From the IMG/VR virus record IMGVR_UViG_2671181127_000013, positions 1 to 37,174 of that record: 37,174 nucleotides of DNA. The stretch is one strand, 5' to 3'. Shown here in pieces: positions 17,980-30,441 of this stretch. The position numbers and the translations under genes were made by a program. Source of the DNA: a virus. Taxonomy: Duplodnaviria > Heunggongvirae > Uroviricota > Caudoviricetes. How positions within the stretch are numbered: position 1 is the first letter of the stretch; the number at the start of each line of letters is the position of its first letter. Under the pieces are notes generated by a model. That model saw only the letters and a list, made by a program, of their open reading frames with translations. It was not told the DNA's origin and searched no databases.

Positions 17980-18702
17980 TCAGTTTGTTTTGCGCGCGGC
18001 TTTTTTCTGGCTGGCAGCGCTTTTCTTTTTTGCGCTGCTCTTTTTCCCGCCGGTGGTGGTTTTCCTGCCCGTTGTGGATGCAGGCACCACCTGATTTCCG
18101 TCTGCCAGTTTCCTGACCGCGCGCTCCAGCGTGGCAATTTCACGCTTCACTCCCGAAGCCGGATTGATCCGCATGGCTTCACGTAACAGGTTCAGCGACA
18201 GATGCAGATCATCGGGAGAGGAGGAGGCGCGGCGGGAAAATGCGCGTGCCTTGTGCAGTTTTGACCTGACCTGGTCCGGCATATCCTGCTCACTGACCTG
18301 GTGGTTCAGCTCATCAAGCATGGCGGTGTACACAGACAAATCCGCCTCGCTGTCCGTTGTGGCCTGCGTCAGAACGGCGTCAGTAATCTCTTCAGCCAGT
18401 ACCGTGGCGGCGTCACGGCAGTCAATGGCCCACACCATCATGGTGGTGATGACCTCATCCTGGCGTCCGCTGTCTCCTGCCAGGGTGCCTTCAATCCACC
18501 CTTCAAAGTCAGGCAACAGATGTTTTTTAAGCTCTGCCCTGGCGACGTTTGACTGAATACCCTTCAGCTGCATCTGTGCCAGCCTTAACTGGTGAAGGAC
18601 CTGTTCATGTGCGGTTCTTTCCCGTTGTGTTTCCCGGGCGTTCATGGTCACCCGGTTGCGGGCCACCGCCTGTTGCACATAGCGTTGTGCCGGTGTCAGC
18701 AT
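17980..18702 (-). CDS. M: Terminase small (endonuclease) subunit M
   Basis: 240 aa between N and L, basic C-terminus; gpM-like. Confidence 0.8.
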   Translation of the reverse strand: MLTPAQRYVQQAVARNRVTMNARETQRERTAHEQVLHQLRLAQMQLKGIQSNVARAELKKHLLPDFEGWIEGTLAGDSGRQDEVITTMMVWAIDCRDAATVLAEEITDAVLTQATTDSEADLSVYTAMLDELNHQVSEQDMPDQVRSKLHKARAFSRRASSSPDDLHLSLNLLREAMRINPASGVKREIATLERAVRKLADGNQVVPASTTGRKTTTGGKKSSAKKKSAASQKKAARKTN

Positions 18703-22591: not shown

Positions 22592-23635
22592 ATGAGTAAA
22601 CGCAAAAAATACACCGGAAAGCGGGGGCAGGATTCGCTACACGATGCACTGAAATCAACGCCTGCACTCAGCGCATTCACCTTTGATGGGCCCTATGAAG
22701 TCAGCCGCATGGATCTCCTGGATAACATGTCATGTGCAGATAACGGGCGCTACTTTGATACCCCCATGGACTGGAACGCTATCGCCCGTGCATCCCGTCG
22801 TGCGTCCTGGCATCAGTCGGCTTTGTACTTCAAGCGCAACGCCCTGAACGGGTGCTTTGTTCCTCACCCTCTGCTGTCCCGCCAGGCGTTTTCAGCGTTT
22901 GCGCTCGACTGGTTTGTGTTTGGTAATGCCTATCTTGAAGTGCGGCGTAACAGGCTGGGGGAACCACTCCTGCTTCGCCCGGCACTGGCAAAATATACAC
23001 GCAGGGGAAGTGACCTGGATACCTACTGGTATCTCAACGACGACGGTACGGAGTTCAGTTTCAGGAAAGGGACTGTGTGCCACGTGCTTAATCCTGATAT
23101 TAATCAGGAGATCTACGGGATGCCGGAATATATCGGCGGGTTGCTGTCTGTCAGCCTGTCAAACTCAGCGGATACATTCCGCAAACTCTACTACGATAAC
23201 GGCTCGCATGCCGGGTGTATTATCTATGTAGGCACATCTCAGGCGAATGCGGAAAGTGTCGAGGCCATTAAAAAAACGCTTACGGATTCCCGTGGTCGCG
23301 GGGCGTTTAAAAACCTGTTTCTACATGCACCGGGTGGTGGCAAGGATGGTGTGCAAATACTGCCGTTCCAGCAGATAACCGCAAAGGATGAATTCCTGAA
23401 CATCAAGGGGAGCGCCCGCGACGATATCCTTGCTGCCCATCGTGTACCACCTCAACTGATGGGGGCAATGCCTGACGGGAATGCGGCGTTTGGTGACGTT
23501 GAAAAAGCGGCGAGAGTGTTTTTCATCAACGAGTTGCAACCTGTCATGGAGGCCATGAAGCATGTCAATGAATGGCTTGGCGTTGAGGTGATGCGCTTTA
23601 ACCCCTATGCCCTGCTTCTGGATAACGCCAGCTGA
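22592..23635 (+). CDS. Q: Portal (capsid vertex) protein Q
   Basis: 347 aa following P; gpQ-like size and position next to cos. Confidence 0.85.
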   Translation: MSKRKKYTGKRGQDSLHDALKSTPALSAFTFDGPYEVSRMDLLDNMSCADNGRYFDTPMDWNAIARASRRASWHQSALYFKRNALNGCFVPHPLLSRQAFSAFALDWFVFGNAYLEVRRNRLGEPLLLRPALAKYTRRGSDLDTYWYLNDDGTEFSFRKGTVCHVLNPDINQEIYGMPEYIGGLLSVSLSNSADTFRKLYYDNGSHAGCIIYVGTSQANAESVEAIKKTLTDSRGRGAFKNLFLHAPGGGKDGVQILPFQQITAKDEFLNIKGSARDDILAAHRVPPQLMGAMPDGNAAFGDVEKAARVFFINELQPVMEAMKHVNEWLGVEVMRFNPYALLLDNAS

Positions 23636-23700: not shown

Positions 23701-24204
23701 TTAACGGAATGCGGATGGCGTTCTTCTTTGCAGCTTGCTGATAATATGCATCTTCATACTGTTTACTATCGGCAGCCATTCCCTGTCACCGTCTCCGTTG
23801 ATGACCACGCGAATGGAGGTATCATCTTCCACGCGAACCCGAAGAGATACACCGTCTTTTCCGACGGAATGTAACTCCATTGCCAGGACTATGTTTACCG
23901 ACTCTCCTTCATCGTGTGAGTCAACCCATGTTCTTACAGCCATCCGGAATATGTTATCTGTGTCGGTTGCAATCATATTTACCGGAAATGGCCTGAAGTC
24001 CCGATCGTTTCTGCACGGAAACCCCGTATCAACGTAACGATGATGCTCGCCGTCTTTGTCTTCCCATGTCTCTGAAGGCAATTCCAGCCACTGCTCATAA
24101 AAAGCAACCAGCTTTTCAGCCTGATTGCGCAGAATCCCTGTAACCTCCCGCCTCGCGTCCCGGCTCTTTTTGTTTGCCAGGTACAAATCGCGAAAATGGC
24201 TCAT
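23701..24204 (-). CDS. Hypothetical protein (167 aa), cos-proximal accessory gene
   Basis: Clean ORF with no family I recognise; sits where P2 carries old. Confidence 0.5.
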   Translation of the reverse strand: MSHFRDLYLANKKSRDARREVTGILRNQAEKLVAFYEQWLELPSETWEDKDGEHHRYVDTGFPCRNDRDFRPFPVNMIATDTDNIFRMAVRTWVDSHDEGESVNIVLAMELHSVGKDGVSLRVRVEDDTSIRVVINGDGDREWLPIVNSMKMHIISKLQRRTPSAFR

Positions 24205-24704
24205 GTCGCTCTCCTTTGGTCTGTTTATGCCAGCCTGTATTCTGCGCTCACCTCATATTGTGCGCAAGTTTTCACCCGTGAATGACTGATACTTTAAATT
24301 CTATTAACTTTATGATTTCAGTGATTTTTGTCTCTCTTTTTTATCCCGTTCGTCACGTCCGTTTCCCTCCCGATCTCCGACCTCGCCAGACGCAATCAGA
24401 CGCATTCTGACGGCCTGTTTCCCTGACCATGTTTTGATGTGGTTTTTCAAAACTGACTTTACTGCGTGCGTATCACGCGCCATACGACCCCAAATAAAGC
24501 AACCCGCCTTCCATCCCTCAATTCGGGCGCCCTTCCCTCGTCGCCTGCGCGCAGCGATCGCCTCGTTTTTCGTGCACCGTGCAAAGTGGCTTCAGCCAGC
24601 GCCGTTACTGGGCTGAAAGGGTAAAAAACACATAAGAAAAATTGTGCAATTTCGTGCACTTTTGTGCGGTTTTCCAGGTGGTGTTTATGCGGGAATCGCA
24701 GGCT

Positions 24705-24739: not shown

Positions 24740-25117
24740 TCATGCCGCCCGATGAGCTTCACCTACTGACGGGTCTATTATGATTTCAAAATCCGTGAAC
24801 AACGCTTTCGGCTGTACGCAGTTACCTTGTTTTTCCAGGCTGACAAAGCCGTATCGACTCAGCATTTTTAACGTTGCTGACAAATTACTTAACTGCCTTC
24901 CTGAAAGACTGGCAAGTTCTGTCATTGTCTGCGGTTTTTCCGCATCCATGATACGCAGAAGCGCGATATTTTCGTTGCTCAGCGCCTGACCCAGAGCGTT
25001 CAGAGATGAAAACCAGACTCGCGGTTCGTCAGGTTCTGGTTTTAGTTTCCCTTTGGCTATATCCAGCATTCTCTGGCGAAGGACTTTCTCCGGGATAATG
25101 CCGATACGGGCTTTCAT
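24740..25117 (-). CDS. Winged-HTH DNA-binding protein (125 aa), second gene of two-gene module
   Basis: TMTELASLSGRQLSNLSATLKMLSRYGFVSL is a typical wHTH recognition segment; start overlaps upstream stop (ATGA). Confidence 0.6.
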   Translation of the reverse strand: MKARIGIIPEKVLRQRMLDIAKGKLKPEPDEPRVWFSSLNALGQALSNENIALLRIMDAEKPQTMTELASLSGRQLSNLSATLKMLSRYGFVSLEKQGNCVQPKALFTDFEIIIDPSVGEAHRAA

Positions 25118-25488
25118 TTCTTCCCCCTTTGCTGTTCAGCAATCACTCTGTCTACATGGTTAAAGAAATCCAGTAAAAGCTGTTCCGCAGAAGTGAATTC
25201 ATATGGATAGCCTTTATCGGACGATGTTCTGTGAATATGGTCATAAACGGTAATGCGCCCGGTAAATTTCCCTTTCTTTGGTGGCTTTATTCCGTGAGCG
25301 TTATCCATTCCAAAAACCCGGGAGTTATAAGGATCGTGCAATGTCAGGTTGTAGCGTATTCCATGTGGTCTGAACTGGCTTGGGCTAACCCTGTATGCTT
25401 CAATCTTCCACCAGTAACCATTATCCATGTGGTGCTGGTATCCATGCATATCCAGAAGGGTGTTCAGCCCATGATCATTGTTTTTCAT
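25114..25488 (-). CDS. Hypothetical His/Tyr/Trp-rich protein (124 aa), first gene of two-gene module
   Basis: Clean ORF translationally coupled to the wHTH gene; preceded by an AT-rich intergenic region; family not recognised. Confidence 0.55.
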   Translation of the reverse strand: MKNNDHGLNTLLDMHGYQHHMDNGYWWKIEAYRVSPSQFRPHGIRYNLTLHDPYNSRVFGMDNAHGIKPPKKGKFTGRITVYDHIHRTSSDKGYPYEFTSAEQLLLDFFNHVDRVIAEQQRGKK

Positions 25489-25671
25489 AACTGATTCGTA
25501 TCACCTTACTTATGACCAAATCATAACATCGTTTTTTTCTTTATCAAGGTGGGTTATTGTGCTGTTCTTGTGGTTATCGACGTTAACTTATGTACATATT
25601 TGAATTCGTAGTGGTTAATATGAAAAAAGTGTCTGACGAATTTGACGGCTTCTGAATACGTAAAACTGTGT

Positions 25672-25703
25672 CAGGCGGAGTATGTTTCTCCGCCTTTTTG
25701 TTT
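25672..25703. terminator. Hairpin plus T-run between the SSB-like gene and the two-gene module
   Basis: GGCGGAG-TATGTTT-CTCCGCC followed by TTTTTGTTT on the plus strand; orientation ambiguous. Confidence 0.4.
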
Positions 25704-25742: not shown

Positions 25743-26060
25743 TCATATTGCGGTTCTTGAGCTGATAATGCTTTGTGCCAGCAACTGCCAGCCTTCTTTC
25801 ATCTGTCCGTATTTGTCCTGATATCTGTTTACCTGCAAGTTCCCGTGCACCTGTACCAGGTCGCCTTTTTTGTGTTTTGCCAGTTCTTCGTGCTGCTTCC
25901 CGAATGCGATAAGGTAAAGCCACATTGTGGTTGACTGTTCTGCGCCATGGCCGGGCAGTGATATCGCCAGTCGTGCAGCTGTTACATCGGTGCCTCTGGA
26001 TGATTTTCTTGTCGTCGGGTCTTCCGCCAGTCGTCCCCGTGTTGCAATCTGCGTTGTCAT
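25743..26060 (-). CDS. SSB-like OB-fold protein (105 aa)
   Basis: Pattern L..DP..R......V...RLA.S.........W....AFGK.AE....KKGD.V.V.G.L....Y.DK.G parallels E. coli SSB OB-fold core; start at ATG 26060 with GGAGA SD. Confidence 0.5.
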   Translation of the reverse strand: MTTQIATRGRLAEDPTTRKSSRGTDVTAARLAISLPGHGAEQSTTMWLYLIAFGKQHEELAKHKKGDLVQVHGNLQVNRYQDKYGQMKEGWQLLAQSIISSRTAI

Positions 26061-26083
26061 ATTTGTCTCCGTTGGTGGTTTAG

Positions 26084-26431
26084 TTATTGGACTGATATGA
26101 CTGGCAGATCTCCGCCAGCGCCGTAGATAAACAGAATTCGCTTCATGACTTCGCTGCGCTTGCAGACTTCGATGACTGATTTTTCCTGTTGCCATTCAGC
26201 CCGTTGCGCCAGCTCCAGTCGTTCCTCTTCCGTTGGCTTCCGGTAATGCGTTATCTTGTCCGTGTACCCGTCCACAACCAGCAGGCCTTCCCGTACCATT
26301 TTTCCGGCGGCCTGATTGATGACGGTTCTTTTCACGCCCAGTTTTTCTACCAGTTCCGGTGCGCTGAAGCGTGCGTGCGTTTCCAGGTAGCGTAAAATGA
26401 TTTCCTTTCCGGTCATTCCTGGGGTCTTCAT
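26084..26431 (-). CDS. Putative winged-helix DNA-binding protein (115 aa)
   Basis: Start at ATG 26431 with AAGGAG SD; EIILRYLETHARFSAPELVEKLGVKRTVINQAAGKMVREGLL resembles a wHTH. Confidence 0.45.
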   Translation of the reverse strand: MKTPGMTGKEIILRYLETHARFSAPELVEKLGVKRTVINQAAGKMVREGLLVVDGYTDKITHYRKPTEEERLELAQRAEWQQEKSVIEVCKRSEVMKRILFIYGAGGDLPVISVQ

Positions 26432-26679
26432 TTGGTGGCTCCTTCGTTGTTCCGGCGCTCCCGGAGTTCGGTCAGTGCTGCCAGTAAATTTTCCCACCAT
26501 GTTTCTTCCACGACCGGATTTTGGCGTGAAAGCAGCTGTTGCGCCGACTCAATCATGCTGTTCAGGTCCCTGTCGCTGATCGCCCTGGTGCTGTTAATGG
26601 TGTGTTGCTGTCTGGTGCTCATGATGTCTGTGGTTCTCCTGTTACTTGCGGTGCTGCTTTCTGGCGGCTGAATGTACAT
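26428..26679 (-). CDS. Hypothetical protein (start uncertain; alternative ATG at 26622)
   Basis: ORF with ATGA overlap to the downstream gene. Confidence 0.35.
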   Translation of the reverse strand: MYIQPPESSTASNRRTTDIMSTRQQHTINSTRAISDRDLNSMIESAQQLLSRQNPVVEETWWENLLAALTELRERRNNEGATK

Positions 26680-27043
26680 AACTTGCTATGGCCGCCTTGC
26701 GGTTAATGCGCTTCATCGCCCTGGCTAAATCTTCGTTGTGTTTCCTGATATCCTTTTCGTGATATGCCTTCATGATCCTCCCGGCTGGCGTCAGTGGTTC
26801 TGGTGCTCCCGTGTTCCTCAGTCTCAGGGCTGCGATAAAGTCGCCGCTGTCTCCCCATGGTCTGGCGTTCAGGATGTCGGCAGTCATACTTTCGGTACTC
26901 CTGTCTGGACGGGCTATGGTGATTTCCAGCTGGTCACCTGGCTGCGGTCTTCTTATCAGTCCTCTCAGCGTCAGCGCCGGTAATCTCTTGGTCATGACGA
27001 CGCTGAACTCTCGTTGCTGAAGCGTGCAGTTGAATCGCGTCAT
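26642..27043 (-). CDS. Hypothetical protein (133 aa) downstream of A
   Basis: ORF overlapping the end of gene A by 4 nt. Confidence 0.4.
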   Translation of the reverse strand: MTRFNCTLQQREFSVVMTKRLPALTLRGLIRRPQPGDQLEITIARPDRSTESMTADILNARPWGDSGDFIAALRLRNTGAPEPLTPAGRIMKAYHEKDIRKHNEDLARAMKRINRKAAIASYVHSAARKQHRK

Positions 27044-29562
27044 TCATCCCCCTTCAGCTGTGCTACTTCCTTCAGGCTTCCGGTGCTTTCATCCCAGTGA
27101 ACAATCCGCCCGTCAGGCAGGCGAACGCGCGCCCCGCGATACACGGAAAGCGCCGCACTACTGTGTAACTCCTCGCCCGTTGTACTCAGAGTACTGGCGA
27201 TCAACCTGGTGGTCATATCCGGTTTTGCGAGTGCCGCACCGGCATATACCACGCCTTCAGGTGCGGGGAACCCGCCGCTGTTTGCGGTTTTTGTGGATTT
27301 CTGGTCATTTTTCAGCTGTTGGGTGAGCTGTTTTCTCTGTACTGGAGTCAGTGACCTTAACCACTCACCCGGATCACCTTCCGGTACGATTAGTTTTTGT
27401 TCTTTCCTCCCTTCCGGTGGTGGTGTTTTGTCCGTTTCGTTGTTTGTTTTTTCATCATGGCGACAGTTATTGCCACGAGTCCAAGGTGCGGCGAAGCCGC
27501 CCCCAACGTCAAAATCCTCGTCCGTGCTGTTGTCGGCTTTCGCTTCTTTTCTGACCAGTTTCCACTCGTCCGGATGGGTGCAGATGGTGTAGCGCTCGCC
27601 GAGCGACGGGGCACAAATTCCGTAGATGCGCTGCGGGAATTCGCCGTAGTCGTTGGCCTCATCTGCGGTTTCGTATGCGGTGCGGATCAGGTACAGGTTG
27701 CGTGGAATGAGCACGCCGCCCTGACGGTTGATGTAGGTGGCAAAACACCCCACGTCAGCGGCGGCCAGAATGGCGTCAATGTCGTCATGGTCCAGGCGCT
27801 TCGGTGATGCGGGGTTACGCTCCATTTGTCCGGCAAGGCGGCGGAGTTCACGCCATACCTGGCGGGGCGGGATACCGAAGAACTGGAACTGCCGGATGCG
27901 GTGGAGACTCGCCCAGGCAATGGCGTTTTCCACGGTTTCCGCCATGGTTTTTCCCGATTCTTTATCGGCGTAAGGTTTGCCGGTTTTCGGGTCATTGTCG
28001 TGAAAGGTGCTGGCGTCCAGGTTCTTGCCAATATAGGTTGCGATGTAGCTTGCCGGTGTGCCTTTTGCCGGGTCGATTTTTTCGCACTTGAAGCGCGGAG
28101 AAATATCATTCCCCAGTTCTGCGCGATCTGATTTGATTGCTGCGTCACGCATGATTTCAATGATGCGTTCTTCATTGTCCGGGGCGGTGAATACCAGCAT
28201 GTGCCAGTGCGGTGTGCCGTCATGGTGTGGCTCAACGGTGCGCACCCCGTACCAGCTCAGGCCTTCTTTGTTGAGTTTTTTTCTTGCAGCTGCAAAGACG
28301 TCGTAAACCAGATAATCACTGGCATCGCGCACGGTGGCACCGTTGTATTTCGGGTTCAGGCTGCCGTCCTCGTTTACGCTGTGAAAGCGGGAAGGGCAGG
28401 TCACTGTCACGAAGAACGCGGAGTCACCACGCGATTCGGCGACCTGTTCCATCCCTCTGACGCAGGCCATCATCTCGTTGCGGCGGTTGCGCGGATTCCC
28501 CAGCCCTGACCAGTACACGTCCTCCAGGCTCAGGCGTTCACCGTCTTCGTTTTCAATGTCCCAGCTTTTGAGAAAATCACGGGTGCGCTGGCGTTTCTCC
28601 CGGAATTCCTGGAGTGACTCATGGCTGATGTAGGGGGATGCCTTGCGCGATACTCTTCCGGCGGCACGCAGTAATTCCTCCCGCCAGAGATCAGCGAGGT
28701 GGCGCAGCTGGTTGTTCCACCAGGTGGCGCAGGTGATACGCATTACCGCGCCCGGTACCAGTTCAGGGTCTGGTGCCGTGCGGCGGTCACGTCTGATCTC
28801 GAGTGACGGCCAGTATGGTGGGTTCACGCCCAGTTTTATTGCCATGCGCGCCAGCTGCTGGTAAGTCAGCAACCAGGTAAACAGGTTATCGTCGCCTTTT
28901 CCTGTCCGCTCAGTAACTTCATCACATATGCGTTCCAGTTCGGTGGAAAATGCCGCCGCCGTTAGTGTGGCAAGGCGCTGAATTTGATCACGGTTGAGTT
29001 GTGGCAGCATGAGTAATTCATCAAGGCGATGACGCGCTGCGGTGGCTTTGAATGCCGTCGTGGCGAAGCATTCATTCACCTGTTCGATGCGTTTCAGGCG
29101 TGTGCGCAGTCCACGGCGAACGAAGTTATCGGCCACGTGAGTGTTGTTGTTTTTCACGCCTTCATTGCGGGCGCTTTGTTGTTTGCGGTTTAAACGCGCC
29201 AGATCACGAATGAGCACGTTGCCAAGAAACGAGGGCAGGGTGCGAAGTTCTGCCATGGCTTCCGATACCAGCGTTGGCGGATTTTCTCGTTTGTGTCTCG
29301 CCAGTTTTTCCAGTCTGATCCGGCGCTCTTCGTCGTGGTGAAGATGCGAATTAATTCGCTTGCCTTCGTCTGTGTTTGTCAGGAAGGAGACGGTTTCTTC
29401 ATCCAGTCTGGCATCAATGCGAATGTCTTCGTTGATGTAGCTCTGAATGGCCTGGCGTAATGCGGTTGGTTGCGCTCTGCCGAACGTTTCAGGATCGATA
29501 ACCGGTAGCGGGGCGTTCCACGGGTACGCCAGTTGTGCGTTATGGTCGCTCATGCGTCGCAC
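27040..29562 (-). CDS. A: Replication initiation protein A (rolling-circle nickase)
   Basis: 840 aa with GTPHWHMLVF (HxH metal-binding motif of gpA-type initiators). Confidence 0.9.
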   Translation of the reverse strand: MRRMSDHNAQLAYPWNAPLPVIDPETFGRAQPTALRQAIQSYINEDIRIDARLDEETVSFLTNTDEGKRINSHLHHDEERRIRLEKLARHKRENPPTLVSEAMAELRTLPSFLGNVLIRDLARLNRKQQSARNEGVKNNNTHVADNFVRRGLRTRLKRIEQVNECFATTAFKATAARHRLDELLMLPQLNRDQIQRLATLTAAAFSTELERICDEVTERTGKGDDNLFTWLLTYQQLARMAIKLGVNPPYWPSLEIRRDRRTAPDPELVPGAVMRITCATWWNNQLRHLADLWREELLRAAGRVSRKASPYISHESLQEFREKRQRTRDFLKSWDIENEDGERLSLEDVYWSGLGNPRNRRNEMMACVRGMEQVAESRGDSAFFVTVTCPSRFHSVNEDGSLNPKYNGATVRDASDYLVYDVFAAARKKLNKEGLSWYGVRTVEPHHDGTPHWHMLVFTAPDNEERIIEIMRDAAIKSDRAELGNDISPRFKCEKIDPAKGTPASYIATYIGKNLDASTFHDNDPKTGKPYADKESGKTMAETVENAIAWASLHRIRQFQFFGIPPRQVWRELRRLAGQMERNPASPKRLDHDDIDAILAAADVGCFATYINRQGGVLIPRNLYLIRTAYETADEANDYGEFPQRIYGICAPSLGERYTICTHPDEWKLVRKEAKADNSTDEDFDVGGGFAAPWTRGNNCRHDEKTNNETDKTPPPEGRKEQKLIVPEGDPGEWLRSLTPVQRKQLTQQLKNDQKSTKTANSGGFPAPEGVVYAGAALAKPDMTTRLIASTLSTTGEELHSSAALSVYRGARVRLPDGRIVHWDESTGSLKEVAQLKGDE

Positions 29563-29966
29563 TCCCCGGCAGTTGCCACCTGAAACGCCGCGCGGTACAG
29601 CACGAGAAGGCGCTGATATTCACCGATAAAGTCTTCTGCGGTGTATATGCCTTTCACGGCCACGCTGTGGGTTGTCATTTCCAGAACCAGCGCCATCTCT
29701 GATGACGACCAGCTGATGGTGGTGCTGTCGGTGCCGTTGATGTGAAATAAACCCAGTCCATCACCATCACCTTTCACGTCCACGCGGTAACGACCGTCAA
29801 CGGTGAAGGAGAAATCCCCGGATGTGGTGATGCTGCGGGCAGCCTGTTTACAGGCGCGGCGGTAATAGTCGTGCCAGTCGTTCAGGCGGGAAGCCAGCCG
29901 GGGATCCACTGCCCACATCCAGTTAAAAAAATCCTGAATATCTGAAAGTCCCTTAACGCTCTTCAT
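29550..29966 (-). CDS. Hypothetical protein (138 aa) upstream of A
   Basis: ORF overlapping the A start. Confidence 0.45.
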   Translation of the reverse strand: MKSVKGLSDIQDFFNWMWAVDPRLASRLNDWHDYYRRACKQAARSITTSGDFSFTVDGRYRVDVKGDGDGLGLFHINGTDSTTISWSSSEMALVLEMTTHSVAVKGIYTAEDFIGEYQRLLVLYRAAFQVATAGECDA

Positions 29967-30034
29967 GAGAACCTCCGGTAACAGATGTGCGGAAGCCTCC
30001 CGCGTACGGGTGCGGGATGGCTTCAGGATGTTGT

Positions 30035-30262
30035 TTAGTGGTGGTGTTGCTGGTTGATAAGGTCCTGCAGCTCCGCGAGATCATCCGCCAGGTAGCTGAA
30101 AACAGCGGCACAGTAACGGTTTGACAGAGCGTGAGTGCGCTCATGCAGCATATTGATGTGCATGATTTGCGCGACGCGTGAGGCGCGGAAAAGTCTGCGG
30201 TTGATTTCAGTGCGGATGTGAAGACGCTCAGCGCGGGCGCGCTGTTGCTTGCGGTTTGCCAT
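30035..30262 (-). CDS. Hypothetical basic protein (75 aa)
   Basis: ORF; Arg-rich N-terminus, His-rich C-terminus. Confidence 0.35.
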   Translation of the reverse strand: MANRKQQRARAERLHIRTEINRRLFRASRVAQIMHINMLHERTHALSNRYCAAVFSYLADDLAELQDLINQQHHH

Positions 30263-30441
30263 GGTGTGGCCTCTTTGCTAGTAAGTTCTGAAAACTCACC
30301 ATCCAGAGCTGCGAAACTGTGGGTGGCGAGACGTACGAGGTTCGCAGTACCGGCTAGCAAAGAACCCGGCCCGACCGAAGTCGGCCCCGTACGCCCCGCC
30401 ATTATTCTGACGCGAAAAAGACGTGGCGATACAGTACGCAC

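Follow-up and report, generated by a model that had tools for sequence, protein, structure and literature searches.

The segment described here occupies positions 25743 to 27043 of a 37,174-nucleotide stretch of the virus record IMGVR_UViG_2671181127_000013, which is referred to below as the window. It contains four genes located directly after the replication endonuclease gene gpA, and all four open reading frames named in the original prediction are present on the minus strand at the coordinates given below, together with neighbouring features.

27040-29562, minus strand: gpA replication endonuclease (Pfam Phage_GPA, 2.2e-108), the head of the gene string
26642-27043, minus strand: g133, 133 aa, with an ATG overlapping the gpA stop codon (ATGA, GATGAATGACG)
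26428-26622, minus strand: g64, most likely 64 aa, called by PGAP as a 195-nt CDS (longest open reading frame 83 aa, 26428-26679)
26084-26431, minus strand: g115, 115 aa, lambda Ren homologue by sequence, with an ATG overlapping the g64 stop codon (ATGA)
25743-26060, minus strand: g105, 105 aa, predicted tail-less SSB consisting of the OB fold only (Pfam SSB)
26025-26034 and 25965-25974, minus strand: 10-nt direct repeat ACGACTGGCG, present twice within the SSB gene (25965-26034)
25673-25695, no strand assigned: GC-rich hairpin 3' of the SSB stop codon (consensus scan; fold z-score -3.05)
25547-25520, minus strand: promoter-like site of the TumE/HVO_A0114 cassette (consensus scan)
25114-25488, minus strand: TumE/DUF6516, hotspot cargo outside the four-gene set
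24740-25117, minus strand: HVO_A0114 winged helix-turn-helix protein, which pairs with TumE, hotspot cargo

The suggestion that the gpA operon continues into these genes is supported by their spacing. In addition to the two overlaps, the g133-g64 and g115-g105 junctions have gaps of only 19 nt and 23 nt, each with a Shine-Dalgarno sequence, and the consensus scan found neither promoter-like nor terminator-like sites on the minus strand within 25743-27043. The AAGGAG sequence noted earlier for g115 is indeed located 7 nt ahead of its ATG, and g105 is preceded by GGAG, 7 nt upstream. Co-transcription with gpA would be expected from this layout, and the likely end of the operon is the hairpin at 25673-25695, whose canonical T-tract is found on the plus strand only in the consensus scan; in another lineage the SSB stop codon is followed by a hairpin that is not the same but equivalent. 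In comparisons between lineages, each of the four genes shows purifying selection (dN/dS 0.14-0.48), and all are therefore real coding sequences. The element is best read as a rare Escherichia prophage of the P2 family (Peduoviridae), and the segment as the distal part of its early (replication) operon. Its closest isolate is phage P88/Xuanwuvirus, with 51% amino acid identity between the gpA proteins. The genes that follow A in the closest isolated phages are unrelated to these four, the segment matched none of 50,697 phage records by megablast, tblastn of g133 and g64 against phage records returned nothing, and the lineage has no sequenced isolate. The P2 cos 19-mer is absent from the window when up to 3 mismatches are allowed. 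A Dam-type methylase is among the proteins encoded by this phage.

Although g133 is an orphan by sequence, it is the likely positional and structural counterpart of P2 Orf91. The predicted architecture comprises an N-terminal beta domain of the ASCH/PUA-like type (about residues 1-75), with a PUA-like beta-barrel fold, followed by a long C-terminal helix (86-132). P2 Orf91 belongs to DUF3850/ASCH in Pfam, and the likeness to it resides in the fold class of the beta domain of about 75 residues and in the position after A: gene A of P2 runs to 30319 and orf91 begins at 30316, giving a 4-nt overlap that matches the g133/gpA arrangement. A homologue of g133 (P0016) likewise overlaps GPA by 4 nt, and homologues are invariably found directly after gpA, even in a prophage that lacks the other three genes. 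Compared with P2 Orf91, g133 carries an extra C-terminal helix of 45 residues. Neither g133 nor its homologues matched Pfam, including ASCH (PF04266) and DUF3850 (PF12961), and hhalign of the g133 profile with P2 Orf91 was not significant (probability 0.1). As sequence similarity is undetectable and only position and fold agree, common descent of the two proteins is no more than a possibility. Their agreement in both respects nevertheless argues against the proposal that orf91 had been replaced in this phage. The distribution of g133 is narrow: a word-index protein search returned seven clusters, all from E. coli, an exhaustive HMMER search with the g133 profile gave three real clusters and spurious matches to large repetitive proteins, the scan of GTDB species representatives gave nothing, and IMG/VR contained one locus. 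The dN/dS test placed this gene under purifying selection as well.

The second gene had been described as an unknown of about 83 aa. It is an orphan, with no match in Pfam, NCBIfam, the PDB or, by tblastn, in isolated phages, and 83 aa is the length of the longest open reading frame. The product, however, is most likely a small protein of 64 aa encoded at 26428-26622, because the first 19 codons of the longer form overlap g133 and are unconserved, the 69-aa version in other lineages begins only downstream of the g133 stop codon, PGAP calls the shorter form, and the match to PHROG 14672 (6e-29) covers only residues 28-83, the C-terminal 56 aa. The dN/dS of g64 is 0.33-0.48.

By sequence, g115 is a homologue of lambda Ren, with a winged-helix-like N-terminus and a conserved C-terminal segment. 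BLASTP aligned it with all 96 aa of Ren at 44% identity (100 aligned positions, E 3e-26), and tblastn matched 170 phage records, with E 9e-15 to lambda-type phages. The best 40 of these 170 matches are all to lambda-like or Stx phages or their relatives, and in the annotated cases among these 40 the ren-type gene has P or the gene of a DnaC-like loader as its neighbour. g115 and Ren share PHROGs 142, 7054 and 1687 (PHROG 142 at 1.2e-28), and the dN/dS of g115 is 0.14-0.27. The earlier description as a winged helix-turn-helix protein is thus correct as to type, with sub-threshold Pfam matches (MarR_2, 25.6 bits against 27; HTH_24, 19.6 against 21.9), and becomes more specific, since the protein is a Ren homologue. 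NCBIfam gave only noise (E > 0.03), and the winged helix-turn-helix protein gp09 of P88 is unrelated. g115 is longer than Ren (115 aa against 96 aa): it has a 5-residue N-terminal extension, and both its internal segment and its C-terminus are longer.

Like lambda ren, which overlaps P, g115 lies at the distal end of a string of replication genes, as the third gene after gpA, and is translationally coupled to the preceding gene by its ATGA overlap. The replication module differs: lambda ren follows O and P (initiator and helicase loader), whereas g115 is coupled to g64 and follows a rolling-circle module with a Phage_GPA HUH endonuclease, and the prophage annotation contains no O, P or DnaC-like gene. 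The supplement of 10.1101/2021.04.19.439022 describes lambda ren as co-translated with O and P, and reports poor growth of ren mutants on Rex+ lysogens, for which suppressors lie in O and P; Ren has been described as a companion of the O/P-type module. The idea of an exclusion or anti-defence function, which had been attached to the SSB-like protein, therefore gains a concrete basis for g115 and not for the SSB.

The last gene, g105, is predicted to encode a true SSB OB fold that lacks the linker and acidic tip, in agreement with the earlier proposal of an SSB-like OB-fold protein. Pfam SSB (PF00436) scores 50 bits (3.4e-13; gathering score 26), PHROG 44 matches at 4e-21, and the best sequence match in the PDB is S. 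aureus SsbB (7.5e-7). The AF2 model (pLDDT 87.7, pTM 0.76) is a five-stranded OB barrel with a capping helix, which Foldseek relates to SsbA/SsbB/SSB structures at probability 1.00 and TM 0.76-0.80, with 0.80 to S. aureus SsbB (PDB 5yyu) and 0.67 to E. coli SSB (1eyg). The NCBIfam SSB models score below their cut-offs (TIGR00621, 43.8 against 53.95). An assignment to PriB was considered and rejected, PriB_gamma reaching only E 0.004 in NCBIfam. Three of the four ssDNA-stacking aromatic residues of E. coli SSB are kept (W54, F60 and W88, corresponding to W47, F53 and Y80), while the loop that carries W40 is shortened and has no aromatic residue. The protein ends in ...SIISSRTAI right at the boundary of the OB fold, and the tip-mediated partner interactions of E. 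coli SSB would accordingly be absent. E. coli SSB and the tail-less SsbB paralogues, of which Bacillus subtilis SsbB is a naturally tail-less example, share the OB fold with g105 but only 24-27% identity; the value for the host SSB is 24%.

The nearest relatives of g105 are SSBs of PICI/cf-PICI-like satellites of E. coli, with 46-52% amino acid identity over the OB domain, the same shortened L23 loop and the same conserved W/F/aromatic positions. These satellite proteins, of which WP_121832169 is an example, differ in having 136-149 aa, a Gly/Gln-rich linker and a ...DDxxGDxIPF tip: among 30 aligned satellite-type relatives the linker is present in every one, and an IPF/VPF/LPF tip ends all except one (29/30). 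In contrast to g105, which is carried by a P2-family phage, they reside in satellites with the layout int - HTH - Icd-like - DUF4222 - primase/RepA - ... - SSB - PerC. Their SSB gene follows the primase/RepA gene at a distance of one or two genes, which suggests that association with a replicon is the ancestral context of this SSB. The satellite genes that flank it show no similarity to g133, g64 or Ren, the SSB alone being common to both types of element. The 105-aa forms fall into three clusters, 79-97% identical to the protein in the window, that end in ...SSRTA(I/R) or ...SSRTxR. With the dN/dS of g105 at 0.21-0.34 (at dS about 0.3), this indicates that the truncated state is old and maintained, and both the OB fold and its conservation run counter to what would have spoken against the prediction. 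A recent nonsense truncation was also considered and rejected: the sequence after the stop codon is a hairpin with no coding trace of a linker or tip, and the protein ends at the same point in lineages of about 80% identity.

The SSB gene is nonetheless dispensable, being absent, interrupted or internally deleted in related prophages. The block was found in 38 of 5426 complete E. coli genomes; the SSB is intact in about 25 of them, carries a 60-nt deletion in 2 and is missing from 11 (strain LZSFT34, NZ_CP132728, is an example with an intact prophage), and in a single metagenomic copy (n=1) it is interrupted by an IS3-family insertion. Simulated recombination between the two copies of ACGACTGGCG yields a 60-nt in-frame deletion that matches the junction and length of the 85-aa variant (L018). 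The GC3 of the SSB gene is 0.53, compared with 0.60-0.66 for the operon and 0.47 for the cargo. The word-index protein search returned nine SSB clusters, all from E. coli, IMG/VR contained five loci, and in GTDB species representatives the clade was represented only by an E. albertii locus and a distant MAG. P2, 186 and P88 replicate in spite of having no phage SSB, so the gpA mechanism as such does not need one.

The four genes lie in the gpA-gpQ interval, as does the tin/old hotspot of P2, and the supplementary table on the gpA-gpQ hotspot lists arrangements with this SSB (WP_032330903) (Rousset et al. 2022, PMC9122126). The exchangeable cargo is located downstream of the SSB and consists of the TumE/HVO_A0114 pair, a 235-aa open reading frame, or nothing; the pair is replaced by other cargo in one related locus (L002) and missing from another (L016). 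It is this separate cassette that occupies the place of tin/old, contrary to the proposal that the four genes had replaced P2 tin. Unlike hotspot cargo, the four genes are co-oriented with A, the scan detected no separate promoter-like site for them, PADLOC and anti-defence family searches gave no meaningful match for any of them, and g133 and g64 are invariant within the lineage. Only the SSB and, in one variant, Ren are variably present. The alternative proposal of a variable hotspot therefore holds in that the region borders the gpA-gpQ hotspot and that the SSB, and to a lesser extent Ren, resemble cargo, but not for g133 and g64, which are fixed partners of gpA within the lineage. The comparison across related prophages that had been suggested gave a correspondingly divided result, with g133 and g64 conserved beside gpA, the SSB often lost and Ren missing from one variant.

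On balance we favour, with modest confidence, the interpretation that the segment is a mosaic of four replication and anti-exclusion accessory genes within the gpA early operon, which would be expressed together with gpA upon induction or infection. On this interpretation g133 would be the lineage's divergent ASCH/DUF3850-type protein, as Orf91 is in P2, translated by coupling to gpA and probably acting as a nucleic acid-binding protein at the gpA replication complex or close to it, and g64 would be a small partner protein coupled to Ren. By analogy with lambda ren, the most likely role of g115 is to shield the phage from abortive exclusion of the Rex type during replication, to assist replication, or both. 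g105 would descend from the SSBs of E. coli phage satellites and be reduced to the OB fold, and most likely coats the single strand displaced in gpA-initiated rolling-circle replication. As it has no acidic tip, it would not recruit the SSB-interacting enzymes of the host and may act as a passive shield, helpful but dispensable. The four genes are an unusual mix of known parts and not a new kind of system.

Since a tail-less SSB cannot support host-type protein recruitment, a plain role as a replication SSB is not the sole reading. Phage SSBs are reported to be sensed by several defence systems of E. coli (Retron-Eco8, AbpAB, Hna, DARNA and DRT10; a host-like FDDDIPF tip has been noted for the trigger of DRT10), and the SSB adjoins a homologue of the sole lambda gene known to counter Rex exclusion. 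It is conceivable, although unlikely, that the tail-less SSB serves in anti-defence or host takeover and not as a replication helper, forming an anti-exclusion pair with Ren (anti-Rex). A tip-less coat would keep host enzymes that depend on the SSB tip (ExoI, RecQ, RecJ, PriA and others) away from phage ssDNA, and likewise any immune system that reads phage SSB or ssDNA bound by SSB; the loss of tip and linker exactly at the OB-fold boundary, in a form under purifying selection, is consistent with this. However, a phage SSB may instead be a liability that triggers such systems, the frequent natural loss of the gene is equally consistent with a dispensable helper, and the searches described above found no PADLOC or anti-defence family match. 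The close relationship to satellite SSBs (46-52% identity) raises the further idea of a dominant-negative copy, which would co-assemble with the SSB of a PICI/cf-PICI-type satellite, or of the host, into mixed tetramers with too few tails and so poison its replication to the benefit of the phage. E. coli SSB tetramers with fewer tails are functionally impaired, and satellites are found together with P2-like prophages in E. coli (PMC10085698), but that same level of identity, and the 24% to the host SSB, make mixed tetramers uncertain, and P2-type helpers are not known for cf-PICIs; we regard this idea as very improbable. A broader version, in which a P2-family phage captured and trimmed a satellite SSB as a weapon (dominant-negative) or as a shield that would hide its ssDNA from tip-dependent nucleases and SSB-sensing immunity, with Ren as the other half of a two-gene counter-exclusion unit on a rolling-circle replicon, appears distinctly unlikely.

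It is also rather improbable that the SSB is a functionless, decaying remnant, a satellite fragment acquired by illegitimate recombination, and that the four genes are lineage-specific filler between gpA and gpQ. Independent losses of several kinds (whole-gene absence, IS insertion and the 60-nt deletion), a GC3 intermediate between operon and cargo, and the unrelated genes after A in the closest isolated phages would fit such decay. Decay is difficult to reconcile with the low dN/dS of g105 and the OB-fold-boundary end shared by the 105-aa clusters, with the good Shine-Dalgarno sequence and tight operon packing, with the confident and complete OB fold of the AF2 model, or with purifying selection on g133, g64 and Ren. 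As for g115, PGAP names the product as MarR family, and the sub-threshold MarR_2, GntR and HTH_24 matches might indicate an ordinary transcription factor of the MarR type, with the neighbouring cargo or the late genes under its control. We consider this highly improbable: every Pfam HTH match falls below its gathering score and spans only about 42 residues (residues 35-76 of a 138-aa open reading frame), whereas the full-length match is to lambda Ren, which itself has no Pfam family at E <= 0.05, and at 115 aa, with a Ren-specific C-terminal part, g115 lacks dimerisation helices of MarR length.

For the favoured interpretation, a mosaic of accessory genes in the gpA operon, the wider implications are modest, and none of them alone alters current understanding. 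Several immune systems of E. coli are now known to read the SSBs of phages and satellites, and the host-like C-terminal tips of these SSBs matter. A tail-less SSB maintained by selection, with full-length sisters in satellites of the same host, is a natural experiment on the use of the tip to mobile elements. That a clear homologue of Ren accompanies a rolling-circle module of the gpA type argues for a Ren function independent of O or P, and the gpA-linked gene offers a second, simpler system for studying Ren. Finally, an ASCH-like gene overlaps the gpA stop codon in P2 as well as in this distant lineage, which suggests that the replication protein has a conserved partner in the gene directly behind A and that this gene is not cargo, a distinction that is relevant when gpA-gpQ intervals are mined for defence systems.

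The window carries a Peduoviridae (P2-family) prophage of Escherichia coli with a P2-like gene order: int, C, an early operon with A last, a variable region, Q-P and the late genes. Prophages in two complete E. coli genomes, JNEC-KY177, where the integration site adjoins dmsA, and LZSFT34, match the segment at 99.8% identity. Sequenced phage isolates give no DNA match; judged by gpA, the nearest of them, P88-type phages (Xuanwuvirus), share 51% amino-acid identity. The lineage is rare, occurring in 0.7% of complete E. coli genomes. As originally predicted, four open reading frames follow gpA on the minus strand; a separate gene pair lies beyond them.

Features of the gpA-proximal region
27040-29562, minus strand, gpA (Phage_GPA match, 2e-108)
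26642-27043, minus strand, g133
26428-26622, minus strand, g64
26084-26431, minus strand, g115, Ren homologue
25743-26060, minus strand, g105, SSB
24740-25547, minus strand, paired TumE/DUF6516 (124 aa) and HVO_A0114 winged-helix (125 aa) genes, overlapping by 4 nt and served by a promoter-like site of their own

The ATG of g133 overlaps the stop codon of A (ATGA), as does that of g115, preceded by AAGGAG, with the stop codon of g64; the g133/g64 and g115/g105 junctions span 19 nt and 23 nt, with AGGAG and GGAG within them, respectively. A consensus scan detected no promoter-like or terminator-like minus-strand sites within the four-gene block. A stable hairpin (25673-25695) follows the SSB stop codon, the other lineage having a different hairpin at the equivalent place, and no promoter-like site appears until 25547-25520 (TTGATA-16-TATGAT plus a TG upstream of it), ahead of the next cassette. 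The frame of about 83 aa described after g133 exists as a maximal reading frame, but its product is most likely 64 aa, since conservation is lacking over its first 19 codons, which overlap g133. Values of dN/dS between lineages (g133, 0.15-0.19; g64, 0.33-0.48; g115, 0.14-0.27; g105, 0.21-0.34) demonstrate that all four are genuine, constrained genes.

Elsewhere in the prophage, a 138-aa ORF (29550-29966, minus strand) without a Pfam match overlaps the start of gpA and is kept upstream of A, annotated as hypothetical, in all related prophages; the annotation of the window prophage shows no helicase-loader gene of the P2 B type. Two Rfam matches at gathering level, to C4 antisense RNA (RF01695, 30319-30406, minus strand, 82 bits) and to the Hfq-binding RNA isrK (RF01394, 30442-30516, minus strand, 64.5 bits), lie directly 5′ of a 'derepression protein' gene (about 30034-30261, minus strand), which suggests a P1/P7-type C4-RNA-controlled antirepressor module within a P2-family early region. 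In the window the portal gene (22592-23635) forms an uninterrupted ORF of 347 aa, but it is flagged with an 'internal stop' in the near-identical JNEC-KY177 prophage (17113-18156 of that locus). A different source strain is therefore probable for the window, and some prophage copies are defective.

The SSB-like OB fold proposed for g105 is borne out by Pfam (50 bits, threshold 26), by solved SSB sequences in the PDB (best, S. aureus SsbB, 7.5e-7) and by structure prediction; the refuting outcome named for it, absence of an OB fold, did not occur. The AlphaFold2 model, built from 34 input sequences (pLDDT 87.7, pTM 0.76), shows an OB barrel plus the usual helix, and Foldseek aligns it with structures of SsbA, SsbB and SSB at TM 0.76-0.80 and a probability of 1.00. 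The equivalents of E. coli SSB W54, F60 and W88 are kept as W47, F53 and Y80; the W40 loop is shortened, likewise in satellite SSBs. In a profile search, only three clusters hold complete 105-aa forms, and E. coli proteins 136-149 aa long account for most of the close relatives. A linker is present in all 30 longer relatives aligned and an acidic ...DDxxGDxIPF-type end in 29, whereas g105 consists of the OB fold alone. The prophage SSBs stop at ...SIISSRTA(I/R), the exact OB-fold boundary. The DNA 3′ of the stop codon folds as the hairpin and retains no remnant of a coding sequence for the tail, and lineages about 80% identical share the same end point, so the truncation is old.

Three longer relatives were checked in their genome context. 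Their islands carry an integrase, an HTH regulator, Icd-like and DUF4222 genes, a primase or RepA helicase, the SSB one or two genes beyond it, and PerC, matching the PICI/cf-PICI satellite layout (as defined in PMC10085698); one of the three also has capsid, protease, portal, connector, HNH and terminase genes. In one satellite locus (L012, 7458-7925) a ProQ/FinO-family gene and regulators of the PerC family come after the tailed SSB, and in another (L010) PerC does. The genes around satellite SSBs vary as well.

For g115, a winged-helix protein had been proposed. Pfam HTH matches are all below threshold, so the PGAP name 'MarR family' is unsupported as membership, and sequence comparison instead identifies the protein as a homologue of phage lambda Ren, with 44% identity over all of lambda Ren (E 3e-26) and matches of both proteins to the same three PHROGs. 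A tblastn search matched 170 phage records, the matches listed being lambda-like phages, Stx phages and relatives. Lambda ren overlaps the end of P. In its statements on ren, the supplement of 10.1101/2021.04.19.439022 describes O, P and ren as co-translated, says that ren is carried by phages with initiator/helicase-loader modules, reports that ren mutants grow poorly on Rex+ lysogens and that suppressors of this lie in O and P, and gives the mechanism as unknown. Unlike lambda Ren, which lies beside O/P, the window homologue belongs to a gpA rolling-circle module and is coupled to the orphan gene g64.

No match to g133 was found in Pfam, NCBIfam, PDB sequences or isolated phages, and searching 1.8 billion representatives exhaustively with its profile returned three real clusters, none in GTDB species representatives. 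Its AlphaFold2 model (pLDDT 84, about 90 in the N-terminal domain) comprises a beta domain (residues ~1-75) and a long helix (86-132). In P2, the Orf91 gene (DUF3850/ASCH in Pfam) overlaps the end of A by 4 nt. Since sequence similarity between g133 and Orf91 is undetectable, the likeness is limited to place, coupling and fold class; common descent is plausible. Relative to another prophage lineage, g133 (26642-27043) is 60% identical with saturated dS (1.6-2.0), whereas the middle of gpA (27940-28839) retains 99% protein identity with dS of 0.01-0.03, a juxtaposition indicating replacement of the g133 allele by recombination and strong mosaicism.

Of 5426 complete E. coli genomes covered by a sensitive DNA search, 38 carry the g133-g64-g115 block, 25 of them with a full-length SSB gene and 2 with an SSB that has a 60-nt in-frame deletion.

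Arrangements and SSB variants among prophages
A-133-64-Ren-SSB-(TumE/HVO_A0114 pair), the window
A-134-69-Ren-SSB-(235-aa ORF)
A-133-64-Ren-(TumE pair), 34 bp replacing 516 bp with the SSB gene and hairpin
A-134-56-Ren-ogr-Q, without SSB or cargo
A-134-64-two small ORFs-ogr-Q, without Ren or SSB
SSB with an internal deletion between two ACGACTGGCG copies, residues 12-31 lost
SSB split by an IS3-family element

A P88-like prophage carries a 44% identical g133 homologue after gpA, with the same 4-nt overlap, and lacks the other three genes. Together with these arrangements, it shows that conservation declines with distance from A (g133 > g64 > Ren > SSB); GC3 drops in parallel, with values of 0.62-0.66, then 0.60 and 0.53, and finally 0.47 for the cargo. 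The whole gpA-gpQ interval has been defined as a hotspot of anti-phage systems, and arrangements with WP_032330903 (the SSB) appear, uncommented, in the supplementary table of that study (Rousset et al., PMC9122126). None of the four genes matches a PADLOC model. In the window lineage exchangeable cargo begins only after the SSB hairpin, and the TumE/HVO_A0114 pair, replaced in relatives by the 235-aa ORF or by nothing, is the actual cargo. Between cargo and portal gene, a 300-bp non-coding block (24377-24673) keeps 88-98% identity whatever the cargo and is a candidate for the cos region; the window lacks the P2 cos 19-mer. Adjoining the portal gene is a 167-aa protein (23701-24204, minus strand; PHROG 5091, unknown function), with an identical accession in all four annotated prophages carrying it.

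We propose that the four genes would be transcribed together with gpA upon prophage induction or phage infection. gpA would nick the origin and rolling-circle synthesis displace a single strand; nicking and strand displacement are established for P2, whose nick site is annotated within gene A. The tail-less SSB may coat this strand and, since a protein without the acidic tip would not recruit host SSB-interacting enzymes, would serve as a passive cover that helps without being essential. Ren would most likely shield replication from Rex-type abortive exclusion, or otherwise assist it, and g133 may be a nucleic-acid-binding partner produced in step with gpA. Alternatively, the SSB could have an anti-defence or host-takeover role, or act as a dominant negative on satellite or host SSB. 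That it is a captured fragment in decay is disfavoured by its dN/dS and conserved end, as is a plain MarR-type regulator for g115 by the Ren homology.

The original prediction was right in observation and partly right in interpretation. The parts are of known kinds, and what is unusual is how they are combined and the state they are in: an SSB of satellite ancestry without its tail, a homologue of Ren that lies outside a lambdoid replication module, and a cryptic gpA partner resembling Orf91.
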